From sequence record OQ721909: DNA of 64,000 nucleotides; one strand, written 5' to 3'. The notes below the pieces were generated by a model. It ran no database searches, was not told the DNA's origin, and saw nothing but the letters and a program-made list of their open reading frames with translations. A program made the translations under genes and the position numbers. Within the stretch, counting starts at the first letter, position 1. Each line of letters begins with the position of its first letter. This document shows, piece by piece, positions 5,726 to 8,486 of the stretch. This DNA comes from Escherichia phage vB_VIPECOOM01.

Positions 5726-6030
5726 GCGGCAACCTTGTCGGGGTTCCACCTGCTAAGGCAAGTGTTTGTACGAAACGCCGGGATTCGAACCCGGTTATTA
5801 AGCAGTTGACGCTACTCAATATTTTTAAAAGGCCATATCTCGACCATATCCGAACGTTCCGTCAAAAACGCTACTCGGCTTACGGCAAAGATATTTCCTC
5901 GAATCGATAATTCGGTGCGCCGTTTCTGCTGTGATGTAAGGGGATATTAACAAATCGTAAAGATTTATTAAGACCAGTCCTTACGCAGGGAACATCAGTC
6001 CGACGACTTACCGGTAGCGACCCGGTTTCT
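5726..6030 (-). ncRNA. ORF-free structured region, candidate stable small RNA(s) co-transcribed with the tRNAs
   Basis: No ORF of 60 aa or more on either strand over about 300 bp despite dense coding elsewhere; tRNA-like T-arm CCGGG-TTCGAAT-CCCGG (5778-5794) with pairing acceptor-like strands CGGAACG/CGTTTCG (5855-5861 / 5771-5777) but no canonical D or anticodon arm; sits between tRNA operon and terminator. T4 has species 1/2 stable RNAs near its tRNAs. Confidence 0.35.
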
Positions 6031-6380
6031 TAATATTCTTTTAAAGCATCAATTTGTTCACGGCGTTTACGCCATAAATCAATTGCTTCATACGCAGATT
6101 CAGCATTTCGAATTGGACGGCATTTATATAAAGACTTATGATTTTGATATTGTGTAGATAACGGAATTTTATCTAAAAGGTCTTTACGTTCAAAATATTC
6201 GTAACCATCTAAACCAAATGAACGATTTTTGAGAAATTGCCAATGACCGTATTCGTTTTCGACATAAACATAATCCGCGTGTTGATAAAGCAAATTAATT
6301 ACACGTTCAGAAATAACAGTGTCATTGTGATTAAAATAAAATGTTAAATCATGAACTACTAAATAAACATTACCTTTCAT
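6030..6380 (-). CDS. Hypothetical protein embedded in the tRNA operon
   Basis: 116 aa, SD gaggaaaat before ATG, starts 17 nt after tRNA-Arg on same strand. Confidence 0.55.
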   Translation of the reverse strand: MKGNVYLVVHDLTFYFNHNDTVISERVINLLYQHADYVYVENEYGHWQFLKNRSFGLDGYEYFERKDLLDKIPLSTQYQNHKSLYKCRPIRNAESAYEAIDLWRKRREQIDALKEY

Positions 6381-6396
6381 ATTTTCCTCACTTAAT

Positions 6397-6472
6397 TGGT
6401 CGAGGCAGTAGGGATCGAACCTACGACCTAGGACTTAGAAGGTCCTTGCTCTTCCTTCTGAGCTATGCCCCG
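6397..6472 (-). tRNA. tRNA-Arg (anticodon TCT)
   Basis: Hand-folded cloverleaf, anticodon loop CTTCTAA, T-loop GGTTCGATCC, CCA encoded. Confidence 0.8.
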
Positions 6473-6476
6473 TAAT

Positions 6477-6552
6477 TGGGGTGACCGATGGGAGTCGAAC
6501 CCATGACTACGAGAATCACAATCTCGAGTTCTACCAACTGAACTACGGCCAC
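6477..6552 (-). tRNA. tRNA-His (anticodon GTG)
   Basis: 76 nt cloverleaf; anticodon arm CGAGA-TTGTGAT-TCTCG; closely resembles E. coli tRNA-His from memory. Confidence 0.7.
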
Positions 6553-6666
6553 ATTAATACCTACTCCAACAATCAAGATGTCTTCACACGAAATTAAGAG
6601 AAGAGTGATCAGTTCAACCCCGATAATCGCGTCAAGTAGATATTAATGTGACAATTGTCACAAATT

Positions 6667-6741
6667 TGGCGGACGTGATAGGATTCGAACCTATAACCAA
6701 TCGCTTAACAGGCGATCGCTCTGCCATTGAGCTACACATCC
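6667..6741 (-). tRNA. tRNA-Asn (anticodon GTT)
   Basis: 75 nt; anticodon loop CTGTTAA; T-arm ATAGG-TTCGAAT-CCTAT; CCA encoded. Confidence 0.7.
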
Positions 6742-6745
6742 AAAT

Positions 6746-6832
6746 TGGTGGGGAGTGATGGAGTCGAACCACCCGAGTCGCAATGACAATGGATTTACAG
6801 TCCACACCGCTACCTCTACGGGATAACTCCCC
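6746..6832 (-). tRNA. tRNA-Tyr (anticodon GTA), long variable arm
   Basis: 87 nt; anticodon loop CTGTAAA; long extra arm; CCA encoded. Confidence 0.7.
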
Positions 6833-6845
6833 TTAATTCTTAATT

Positions 6846-6920
6846 TGGTGGCCCTGGGTGGAATTGAACCACCATCTGGCGATTATGAGTCGCTTGCTTG
6901 AACCTTCCAGCTACAGGGCC
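6846..6920 (-). tRNA. tRNA with CAT anticodon, most likely Ile (lysidine type); Met not excluded
   Basis: 75 nt; anticodon arm AGCGA-CTCATAA-TCGCC resembles E. coli tRNA-Ile2 from memory; T4 tRNA-Ile also carries CAU. Confidence 0.65.
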
Positions 6921-6929
6921 AAATTTTTC

Positions 6930-7412
6930 TTATTTTATGTAATATTTATTTAAAAACTTTCTAGCTTGAGTATGGCTAACATTTATAGCGTTTGCATAAT
7001 TTTTAATAAAACCTCGTTCATCCATATTAAAATTTTCTAATATTTTTAATCGTCTAATTATCTCATCTTGGCTTAAGGTACTTGCATTATTTTTAGAAAT
7101 TTTTTCTAAAGACTGCACTGAGTGTTTTCGACCATTAAAATTAAAATTTTTAGGTTTTGGAGGAAATCTATCATTTAGTCTCGCATCTTTTGTATTTTGA
7201 TTATTAGTTGCGCAATATATGTTATTTAATGAGTATGGTCCTTTATCACCAAAACGACACATACAGTATTCATGACCCTTTCTTCCACGCTTATCATAAT
7301 TTCCCGTTGATTTCCACCAATTCAACCACTCATCAAAAGTTAAATTCCATTCAATGTTTCTACGTATAGCAGAATTCCGCTGAGAAATATATTTTGCATA
7401 ATCTTCTTTCAT
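6930..7412 (-). mobile_element. Free-standing HNH-like (His-Me finger) homing endonuclease gene inserted between tRNA genes
   Basis: 160 aa; EWNLTFDEW plus CxC and GDKGPYSLNNIYCATNNQN motif resembling degenerate phage HNH nucleases; basic C-terminal HTH-like tail; interrupts the tRNA cluster. Confidence 0.5.
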
Positions 7413-7459
7413 CGCAAATTTCTCTACTTATTGCATACACTAAGCTAAATCAGCAAAAC

Positions 7460-7549
7460 TGGCGGAGGCGATAGGATTTGAACCTATGAGTCGCCGGAGC
7501 GACTGCCGGTTTTCAAGACCGGTGCATTAAACCACTCTGCCACGCCTCC
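7460..7549 (-). tRNA. tRNA-Ser (anticodon TGA), long variable arm
   Basis: 90 nt; anticodon arm CCGGT-CTTGAAA-ACCGG; CCA encoded. Confidence 0.8.
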
Positions 7550-7551
7550 AG

Positions 7552-7625
7552 TCTCCGCGGCAGGATTTGAACCTGCGACATTCTGCTCCCAAAGCAGACG
7601 CTCTACCAAACTGAGCTACACGGAG
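7552..7625 (-). tRNA. tRNA-Pro (anticodon TGG), CCA not encoded
   Basis: Anticodon arm TCTGC-TTTGGGA-GCAGA; abuts tRNA-Ser with 2-nt spacer, as in the T4 Pro-Ser dimeric precursor. Confidence 0.8.
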
Positions 7626-7635
7626 TAAATTAAAT

Positions 7636-7709
<74 letters not shown>

Positions 7710-7714
7710 AAATT

Positions 7715-7801
7715 TGGTGCGAGAAGTGGGACTCGAACCCACAAGGAAATCATTCCGCAGCATTTTAAGTGCTGTGCCTTTACCAATTTGACCATTCTCG
7801 C
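7715..7801 (-). tRNA. tRNA-Leu (anticodon TAA), long variable arm
   Basis: 87 nt; anticodon arm CAGCA-CTTAAAA-TGCTG; CCA encoded. Confidence 0.8.
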
Positions 7802-7802
7802 G

Positions 7803-7875
7803 CTGGGAATAAAGGACTCGAACCTTTGCATCTAGCAGTCAAAGTGCTATGCCTTACCAACTTGGCTAATTCCCA
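7803..7875 (-). tRNA. tRNA-Gln (anticodon TTG), CCA not encoded
   Basis: Anticodon arm TAGCA-CTTTGAC-TGCTA; 1-nt spacer to tRNA-Leu as in the T4 Gln-Leu dimer. Confidence 0.8.
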
Positions 7876-7944
7876 ATTATTAACAAAGGCTCTTAAGCAA
7901 GAACCCTTGATGATAGAGGGTATTAATCAGTGCGATATGAGTTA

Positions 7945-7969
7945 ATAATAACAAATAATTCTTAAAGCA
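7945..7969 (-). promoter_or_regulatory. MotA-dependent middle promoter candidate for the tRNA operon
   Basis: Minus strand TTGCTTTA (MotA box) then 12 nt then TATTAT -10. Confidence 0.45.
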
Positions 7970-8486
7970 AATTAAACATTTTAACGGTCGGCAAAACAAT
8001 TTCTTCTTCTATATAAGAGTATTTAACACTCTCAACTACACGCAAAAAATCATAATCATAATACTCAGAAGCATTACCTAAAATATTAATAAGTCCTTCA
8101 AGCACTTTATTACCATTCACAAAAAATAAGTCAAATACACGTTCTTCATCTTCTTCAGATTTATTACCAAGATCAACTTCTATGCGAAAGACCTTTTTAA
8201 TGAATTCTGGATAAAGCTGGTCTGAGAACAGTCCTTCAACCAAGTATTCATAAATAAAAAGAGATTGCTCGCTGAACAAACCATTACCGCAATAGCGCTC
8301 AATTTTAGTACTAGAATATCTGCTTTTAAATTTCTTTAAAAGATACTGAAATTGTAAGATTTCATGCTCTTCTACGCCAAACAGTGTTTTAGTTTTATAG
8401 TTGTCACCATCATTTTCCCAGGTAGTGACATCAATTACGTAACCCTGCGGAATTGTAGTACCCAAACAAATATTCATTTTCACCAC
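7962..8486 (-). CDS. Hypothetical protein
   Basis: 174 aa ORF in operon with 8480-8770 and 8773-9171; acidic, no motif recognised. Confidence 0.55.
   Translation of the reverse strand: MVKMNICLGTTIPQGYVIDVTTWENDGDNYKTKTLFGVEEHEILQFQYLLKKFKSRYSSTKIERYCGNGLFSEQSLFIYEYLVEGLFSDQLYPEFIKKVFRIEVDLGNKSEEDEERVFDLFFVNGNKVLEGLINILGNASEYYDYDFLRVVESVKYSYIEEEIVLPTVKMFNLL

Follow-up and report, generated by a model that had tools for sequence, protein, structure and literature searches.

The tRNA operon of Escherichia phage vB_VIPECOOM01 (record OQ721909, of which a stretch of 64,000 nucleotides (nt), here called the window, was analysed) contains an open reading frame (ORF) of 160 amino acids (aa) which is most likely a selfish homing endonuclease gene (HEG) that overwrote a tRNA-Thr gene. 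The encoded protein is probably a free-standing homing endonuclease that combines a C-terminal DNA-binding tail shared with the Seg endonucleases and a histidine-free β-β-α head resembling that of the restriction enzyme PacI. HEGs in the tRNA clusters of T-even phages are well known from SegB (PMC2330249, PMC13096335). New is the head, which belongs to a large His-free, PacI-resembling protein family outside Pfam and NCBIfam, together with the recognition of the T2 gene trna.1 as a decayed copy of the ORF; no description of the family was found in the literature searched, the coverage of which was incomplete. A preliminary description made from the sequence of the window had placed an HNH-like endonuclease gene at 6930–7412, and the minus strand does contain an ORF of 160 aa there, which starts with ATG. 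The features named for its product, i.e. the segment EWNLTFDEW, the paired cysteines (CMC...C), the block GDKGPYSLNNIYCATNNQN and a basic C-terminal tail, are all found in the translation.

The ORF had been assigned to a gap between two sub-clusters of tRNA genes. It does lie between tRNA-Ser and a tRNA with the anticodon CAT, but this gap did not pre-exist: in relatives without the ORF (ph0021, RB18 and T4) the slot between these two genes is occupied by tRNA-Thr. Positions 1 to about 26 of this tRNA-Thr persist upstream of the ATG, and the ORF has taken the place of the remaining 3′ two-thirds, about 50 nt. It begins 47 nt downstream of tRNA-Ser and its stop codon stands 9 nt ahead of tRNA(CAT); neither flanking tRNA gene differs between the aligned phages. 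The intact arrangement Ser-Thr-Ile(CAT) is present in 433 phage records, and the ORF at a protein identity of at least 95 % in about 24, several of which hold frameshifted copies of the T2 type. Among close relatives a sporadic presence, sharp insertion boundaries and decayed copies are found together, as in free-standing phage HEGs.

Full-length homologues occur inside tRNA clusters in five genera of the Straboviridae in all, beside different tRNAs. The order Ser, ORF, Met/Ile(CAT) with the 9-nt gap to the next tRNA is that of the window and of the Tequatrovirus vB_VIPECOOM03. In Karamvirus CkP1 the gene stands between Leu and Thr and overlaps the next tRNA by 18 nt, in Jiaodavirus KpV477 between Tyr and Lys (10-nt overlap), in Gelderlandvirus S16 between Gln and Arg (10-nt overlap) and in the Biquartavirus Aeromonas phage 31 between Asn and Tyr, with a gap of 1 nt to the next tRNA. 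The last case can be compared directly with Aeromonas phage 44RR2.8t, which belongs to the same species and has flanks that are 99 % identical. Phage 31 carries a clean insertion of about 485 nt in the 13-nt Asn-Tyr spacer of 44RR, ending 1 nt ahead of tRNA-Tyr. In the cluster of the Klebsiella phage KpV477 a pseudo-tRNA with the anticodon TGA is annotated (L012, 3019–3101), which may be a further trace left by moving HEGs.

Other nuclease-type genes behave in a similar way. The next slot of 44RR (Tyr|Lys) contains ORF121c, which is missing in phage 31 and encodes a T5orf172/MUG113 protein of the GIY-YIG clan (L017, 829–1383); T5orf172 has been described as a HEG family (PMC10448857). In RB18 the GIY-YIG gene segB (L005, 1210–1860) occupies the tRNA-Pro slot of the relatives, and in OE5505 a gene annotated as HNH endonuclease (L004, 2007–2615; weak match to Pfam HNH, E = 0.005) is located in the tRNA-Gln slot. 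Since segB, HNH and T5orf172 genes are all found in single-tRNA slots, the tRNA clusters can be regarded as landing pads on which nuclease-type genes of at least four families settle. The independent invasions by different nuclease families that had been proposed for this region are thus confirmed, with one correction: segB of T4 is not at the equivalent spot but in the adjacent slot (Ile|Arg).

Divergence data also speak for mobility of the ORF. Between the window phage and OE5505 the synonymous divergence (pS) of the ORF is 0.022, and that of a trna.2-type gene 550 bp away is 0.146, whereas in comparison with ECO78 both the ORF and its flanks show pS values of 0.16–0.21. The sharp change over about 550 bp marks a recombination boundary near the ORF and fits a recently exchanged tract.

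The ORF is the intact form of trna.1 of phage T2L (AJ880101), with 96 % identity over 129 aa. Copies of the T2 type have suffered two 2-nt deletions near the 5′ end, so that the original ATG meets a stop after 17 codons; the annotated T2-type protein of 133 aa restarts at an internal ATG and consequently lacks helix 1 and the conserved residues A15, R18 and W29. Brok-Volchanskaya et al. used the trna ORFs as markers only, and the function of trna.1 was unknown in 2008 (PMC2330249). In their crosses between T4 and T2L, SegB drives segB to 99.6 % of the progeny and trna.1 to 0.4 % (PMC2330249). As the T2L allele is frameshifted, this cross was not a test of the intact gene.

The product of the ORF is a two-module protein with an N-terminal domain (residues 1–82, hereafter N-domain) and a tail (residues 83–160). 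Residues 83–159 share 52 % identity (E = 4e-22) with the C-terminus of a Seg-type endonuclease of the Shigella phage vB_SdyM_006 (Bragavirus). This protein, gp119, has Pfam matches to SegE_GIY-YIG and GIY-YIG, and its gene lies inside a tRNA cluster. Residues 52–156 are 32 % identical to 'segB' of RB18, a protein with GIY-YIG matches above threshold and a Pfam NUMOD3 match just below it (20.1 bits, cutoff 20.4). The motif at residues 93–110 aligns with this near-threshold NUMOD3 stretch, and two orthologues (P0002 and P0003) show weak NUMOD3 matches on the motif GRKHS..S..KIS. For residues 110–160 AlphaFold predicts helices throughout, with a predicted local distance difference test (pLDDT) of 85–93. 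Similarity of the tail is confined to the RB18-type and Bragavirus Seg proteins, the tail of T4 SegB showing none. GIY-YIG and SegE_GIY-YIG have no match in the ORF product in a scan that detects both in RB18 SegB and in gp119. The helix-turn-helix (HTH)-like tail suspected before can thus be specified: by sequence homology it is a DNA-binding module of the kind that forms the tail of GIY-YIG homing endonucleases of the Seg type from tRNA clusters.

When the N-domain alone served as query, a word-indexed search gave no homologues. A four-sequence profile, searched exhaustively with HMMER (E ≤ 1e-3 on cluster representatives), revealed a family of 5,697 cluster representatives, 3,675 of them at E ≤ 1e-10. 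Most members have 100–200 aa (median 153), and in a few the domain is present twice. Neither Pfam nor NCBIfam has a model that matches the N-domain in the ORF product and 150 relatives, and sequence searches of the ORF against Pfam, NCBIfam and the PDB gave chance matches only (DotZ, E = 0.022; ribosomal eL37, E = 0.09). The complete product matches phrog_16521, whose function is not known (E = 2e-54), and tblastn found homologues of the ORF in 150 phage records. A weak match to phrog_3118 'HNH endonuclease' was obtained for 11 of 32 relatives (best E = 5e-7). In the public sources checked the family members are named only 'hypothetical protein'; some database records call homologues of the ORF 'HNH endonuclease' or 'homing endonuclease' (Citrobacter phages Ursula and WL-3).

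A tail of at least 40 aa follows the N-domain in 108 of 149 relatives. Among 150 members the tails with Pfam matches comprise NUMOD3 (17), I-TevI_DNA-bd (5) and NUMOD1 (4) in addition to many HTH types, and the tail region of the family profile matches the DNA-binding domain of I-TevI (1i3j, E = 0.022). Residues 1–82 are also found without the Seg-type tail in small proteins from phages that are not related, for example Vibrio PS35B.1, an ORF of Vibrio phage VPp1 and gp31 of Cellulophaga phage phi46:1. The GIY-YIG and HNH homing endonucleases are likewise built from a constant head and exchangeable DNA-binding modules associated with nucleases, and the ORF product with its predicted nuclease-like head fused to a NUMOD/HTH module follows the same plan. 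The ORF of VPp1 (L008, 1468–1920) is unannotated, starts with GTG and encodes 150 aa with an HTH tail; immediately before it stand two annotated nuclease genes, gp10 of the canonical HNH type and gp11 with the label 'endonuclease'.

Modelling with AlphaFold2 (AF2) on a four-sequence alignment was unusable for residues 37–97, and the N-domain was modelled anew with 150 sequences. The resulting model of residues 1–90 has a mean pLDDT of 94 and a predicted template modelling score of 0.79. It consists of two helices (2–17 and 26–36), a strand (49–53), a loop, a second strand (65–69) and a helix (70–82), and the predicted core has the β-β-α-metal fold of the HNH/His-Me finger superfamily. In a Foldseek search of the PDB, PacI (3ldy_A) ranked first (TMq 0.62, probability 0.75, E = 0.72) and Gme HNH third. 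PacI is the best structural neighbour by two methods, and other β-β-α-metal nucleases recur further down the lists. Among viral models Foldseek returned family members, followed by weaker matches to proteins of giant viruses, one of them named 'Restriction endonuclease HNH'; these matches fit the PacI group, which is dominated by giant viruses (PMC5714182). The HNH-like nature of the protein is in this way supported by the predicted core and its nearest structural neighbour. However, the profile search for HNH/His-Me nucleases, which covered the models HNH, HNH_2 to HNH_5, Endonuclease_7 and related ones, had no match in Pfam or NCBIfam, an outcome which the preliminary description had named beforehand as speaking against it.

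In the alignment of 150 sequences W29, W33, M51, R53, D56, G58 and Y60 are conserved in all members and N64 and N73 in 99 %, followed by R42 and G43 (97 %) and A15 and R18 (95 %). In HNH enzymes the general-base His is located at the end of strand 1; the family has R53 in this place. Y60 belongs to the inter-strand (omega) loop, whereas N64 stands just before strand 2 and N73 in the helix. By position, N73 would be the Asn ligand of the core helix and N64 the structural Asn ahead of strand 2. The proposed exchange of the terminal His for Asn agrees with N73, but it is not the sole degeneracy, as the general-base His is missing altogether. His reaches at most 52 % in any column; this maximum concerns positions 38 and 40, which lie outside the core and are N and D in the ORF product. 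H47 of the ORF product is conserved in 10 % of the relatives. The paired cysteines are present but do not characterise the family: C50, C52 and C67 are conserved in 48, 37 and 61 % of the relatives, respectively, and a fourth Cys does not exist. A zinc site was considered and rejected, since cysteines that are not conserved would not form one.

PacI itself has no catalytic His; a Tyr of the omega loop acts as general base or nucleophile, and a single metal ion is bound by one Asp and one Asn (PMC5714182, PMC4081073). Transferred to the model, the family would hold the complete PacI-like residue set (D56, Y60 and N73) and none of the zinc sites of PacI.

From these data we infer DNA cleavage, catalytic roles for Y60, D56, N73 and R53, and homing. 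The ORF would have no promoter of its own; it would be transcribed in the tRNA precursor and freed by tRNA processing on both sides. The tail of the protein would then bind the tRNA-gene DNA of a co-infecting relative with intact Ser-Thr-Ile(CAT), and the N-domain would cut this DNA, D56 and N73 holding a single metal ion for the reaction. Y60, invariant in the loop, would stand in for the missing His, as in PacI, and R53 would stabilise the phosphate. The cleavage target is probably located in or beside tRNA-Thr of the genomes that are devoid of the ORF. When the break is repaired with the ORF-bearing genome as template, the ORF would be copied in and the target destroyed, which would leave the carriers without tRNA-Thr. 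A more far-reaching version is conceivable but rather doubtful: the N-domain family would constitute a new class of His-Me-finger homing endonucleases that works without His and uses Y60, this residue might even be a covalent nucleophile with a phosphotyrosyl-DNA intermediate, as discussed for PacI, and T4 Srd would have been domesticated from this scaffold.

Several points weigh against a homing endonuclease. A catalytic His at the end of strand 1 was not found in the 150 sequences, in which an invariant R53 takes this place, and no nuclease profile of Pfam or NCBIfam matches the N-domain. The equivalence of Y60 with the PacI tyrosine is suggested by its position in the predicted secondary structure, and the two Cys4 zinc sites of PacI have no counterpart in the family, which contains no conserved Cys. 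For all members of the family nuclease activity is putative. In the sole published cross, T4 × T2L, trna.1 was excluded (PMC2330249). Ordinary mosaicism of T-even phages could give the same discordant divergence around the ORF. Finally, motif and fold are shared with T4 Srd, known for the stimulation of RNase E and not for DNA cutting.

Some of these points would also be explained by a catalytically dead, nuclease-derived protein that binds the DNA of the tRNA cluster, comparable to the MH1 domain of Smad, and acts as a regulator or as a shield against SegB-type endonucleases. We regard this as unlikely, although it is the strongest of the alternatives. It agrees with the missing conserved His, with the lack of nuclease profile matches and with the His-Me classification, in which two of three His-less groups were judged inactive (PMC5714182); the tail homologous to SegB-like tails could moreover confer a related binding specificity. 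However, an invariant set of acidic, aromatic and amide residues (D56, Y60, N64 and N73) around the core is unexpected in a pure DNA binder, and the recurrent fusion to NUMOD and I-TevI tails as well as the swapping of tails are hallmarks of active homing endonucleases. The pattern of insertion, presence or absence, and decay is that of a selfish element. Furthermore, the T2L copy gave no protection against SegB, though this copy is defective.

A second alternative, which we consider improbable, comes from T4 Srd. The N-terminal part of about 85 residues encoded by T4 srd (L015, 2040–2786) shows an E-R...G-Y...N...N series and a similar predicted fold. In this N-terminus, LSLERFDNNVGYIKGNVIAVKKKYN, an E-R pair stands at the place of the canonical D-H, and gp31 of phi46:1, TIDKVVNKEGYHINNLQLLSNRAN, has an acidic-basic D-K pair there. 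In both, taken as more distant relatives of the family, the pair is followed by G-Y, by N at Y+4 and by N at Y+13, and sequence links to solved structures or Pfam were found for neither. On the basis of the common motif series and the similar fold T4 Srd may contain a His-less HNH-like domain, a link that is not noted in the literature searched. T4 Srd is known to stimulate RNase E, and neither binding nor cutting of DNA is known for it. Accordingly, the ORF product might affect processing or decay of the tRNA precursor without any DNA cutting. The location of the gene inside the tRNA precursor transcript, the match of the N-domain model to Srd-like 'anti-sigma factor' viral models (Foldseek E = 2e-3, TMq 0.76), a weak match to phrog_4592 'decoy of host sigma70' (E = 0.053) and the motif-for-motif alignment of the Srd N-terminus with the N-domain (hhalign E = 0.026) speak for such a role. 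Yet the sequence link is weak (hhalign probability 1.9 %), and the tail is a DNA-binding module common to DNA endonucleases. Such a role would also leave the clean insertion polymorphisms and the loss of a tRNA gene to the ORF unexplained.

A canonical HNH enzyme of the H-N-N type, with a His general base, a cysteine zinc site and only the last His changed to Asn, would accord with the predicted β-β-α fold, the Asn at the terminal ligand position and the names of the Ursula and WL-3 homologues, but it is already contradicted by the conservation data (no His above 52 % and none of these in the core, H47 rarely kept, an invariant Arg at the end of strand 1, variable cysteines, no match to the Pfam HNH models) and hardly deserves further consideration. 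A selfish HEG with a His-less PacI-like head hence remains the preferred interpretation of the ORF.

The features discussed here are compiled in Table 1. The DNA of the window is 100 % identical to that of vB_VIPECOOM03, and window coordinates are obtained by subtracting 64,000 from the coordinates of the vB_VIPECOOM03 record.

Table 1 Position of the ORF, its modules and the adjacent tRNA sequences in the window
Feature	Position	Strand	Basis
ORF, 160 aa plus stop, ATG start	6930..7412	minus	open reading frame listing
N-terminal domain, residues 1–82, two helices and β-β-α core	7167..7412	minus	HMMER family, AF2 model with pLDDT 94
β-β-α core, residues 49–82, putative active site	7167..7268	minus	AF2 secondary structure, conservation in 150 sequences
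NUMOD3-like motif, residues 93–110, NGRKHSVQSLEKISKNNA	7083..7136	minus	weak NUMOD3 matches in orthologues P0002 and P0003
Helical HTH-type tail, residues 115–160, predicted DNA-binding	6933..7070	minus	homology to Seg tails, predicted helices
Remnant of the 5′ third of tRNA-Thr (acceptor stem and D-arm, 9-nt insertion), leader of the ORF	7421..7454	minus	alignment with ph0021, RB18 and T2L
tRNA-Ser(UGA), upstream flank, conserved left homology arm	7460..7549	minus	ARAGORN; identical in 4/4 aligned phages
tRNA(CAT), conserved right homology arm	6846..6920	minus	ARAGORN, alignment of four phages

The ORF is a genuine gene and not a chance reading frame. Between the intact alleles of the window phage and ECO78 there are 14 synonymous and 5 non-synonymous changes, which corresponds to a pS of 0.157, a non-synonymous divergence (pN) of 0.013 and a ratio of about 0.08, and thus to purifying selection. 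ARAGORN detects ten tRNA genes in the window, all on the minus strand and five on either side of the ORF; in the direction of transcription the order is Gln, Leu, Gly, Pro, Ser, ORF, Met/Ile(CAT), Tyr, Asn, His and Arg. On its coding strand the stretch 6300–8100 contains neither a sigma-70-type promoter nor an intrinsic terminator, and the ORF is presumably transcribed within the tRNA precursor transcript; the same has been proposed for segB (PMC2330249). A hairpin for translational repression was also considered. The minimum-energy fold of the leader pairs the Shine-Dalgarno sequence and the AUG, yet its stability does not exceed that of shuffled sequences (z = 0.25) and hence gives no evidence of repression. 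An Rfam scan found tRNAs alone and did not recognise the tRNA-Thr remnant as a tRNA; sub-threshold matches to sX4 and Plastid-ycf2 overlap tRNA genes and are due to chance.

Some further observations concern the surroundings of the ORF. The tRNA with the CAT anticodon is called Met by ARAGORN, and the identical gene is annotated as tRNA-Ile in T4 and RB18, where the CAU anticodon is presumed to be modified; database records are split between the two assignments. The spacer between tRNA-His and tRNA-Asn (6553–6666, 114 nt) contains no tRNA or Rfam match. T2L has no tRNA-His, and its gap from tRNA-Arg to tRNA-Asn is 4 nt, so that the tRNA-His gene and the 114-nt spacer together represent another variable segment of the cluster. 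An ORF of 116 aa at 6030–6380 is of the T2L trna.2 type and is labelled 'endonuclease' in one record (ECO78). This label is unsupported because the protein has no Pfam match and its PHROG is one without an assigned function. The gene called trna.2 in T4 itself is a different one, located on the opposite side of the tRNA cluster.

If the interpretation as a HEG is true, a histidine-free and probably tyrosine-assisted β-β-α-metal chemistry would be added to the few families of homing endonucleases, and a function would be provided for thousands of phage proteins which are now labelled 'hypothetical'. It would likewise assign a role to trna.1 of T2, of which the classic T4 × T2L cross used the decayed allele alone; a possible competition of the intact gene with SegB is directly testable. 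The repeated overwriting of single tRNA genes in T-even operons by at least four nuclease-type families bears on the turnover of phage tRNA repertoires, including those that counter tRNA-targeting defences. A tail swapped between GIY-YIG enzymes and the N-domain would furthermore represent a case of natural retargeting with a possible use in nuclease engineering.

Among the known systems T4 Srd differs in its organisation, with 248 aa, a C-terminal half unrelated to the ORF product and a gene outside the tRNA cluster. The canonical HNH homing endonucleases of phages (I-HmuI, HNH_3 and Mob type) share the β-β-α class with the N-domain family, also use Asn at the structural and the terminal ligand position and carry fused NUMOD/HTH DNA-binding modules too. 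Instead of their D-H dyad the N-domain has, where strand 1 ends, an invariant Arg preceded by a variable residue, and it has no match among the Pfam models HNH, HNH_3 and related ones. In PacI (3m7k, 3ldy; His-Me finger group 20, PMC5714182) the β-β-α core lies behind helices, as it does in the N-domain; both are devoid of a catalytic His, and both have a Tyr in the inter-strand loop and a conserved Asp and Asn as possible metal ligands. Unlike the ORF product, PacI is a restriction enzyme that forms homodimers, recognises a palindrome of 8 bp and carries no NUMOD tail; sequence identity to the N-domain is about 16 %, and no link at the profile level was found.

From the Seg-type GIY-YIG HEGs (T4 SegB, 'segB' of RB18 and gp119 of vB_SdyM_006) the ORF differs in the N-terminal domain of its product, which is not GIY-YIG according to Pfam and to the predicted fold. 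Cleavage and homing were shown experimentally for SegB (PMC2330249) and are putative for the ORF product. In other respects the two resemble each other closely: the genes are free-standing and located between tRNA genes, the Seg genes examined end, like the ORF, a few nt from the next tRNA or overlap it, and they are sporadic and replace single tRNA genes, as segB of RB18 does in the tRNA-Pro slot. The Seg enzymes follow the same two-module plan, and the homologous tails of gp119 and RB18 SegB connect them directly with the product of the ORF.

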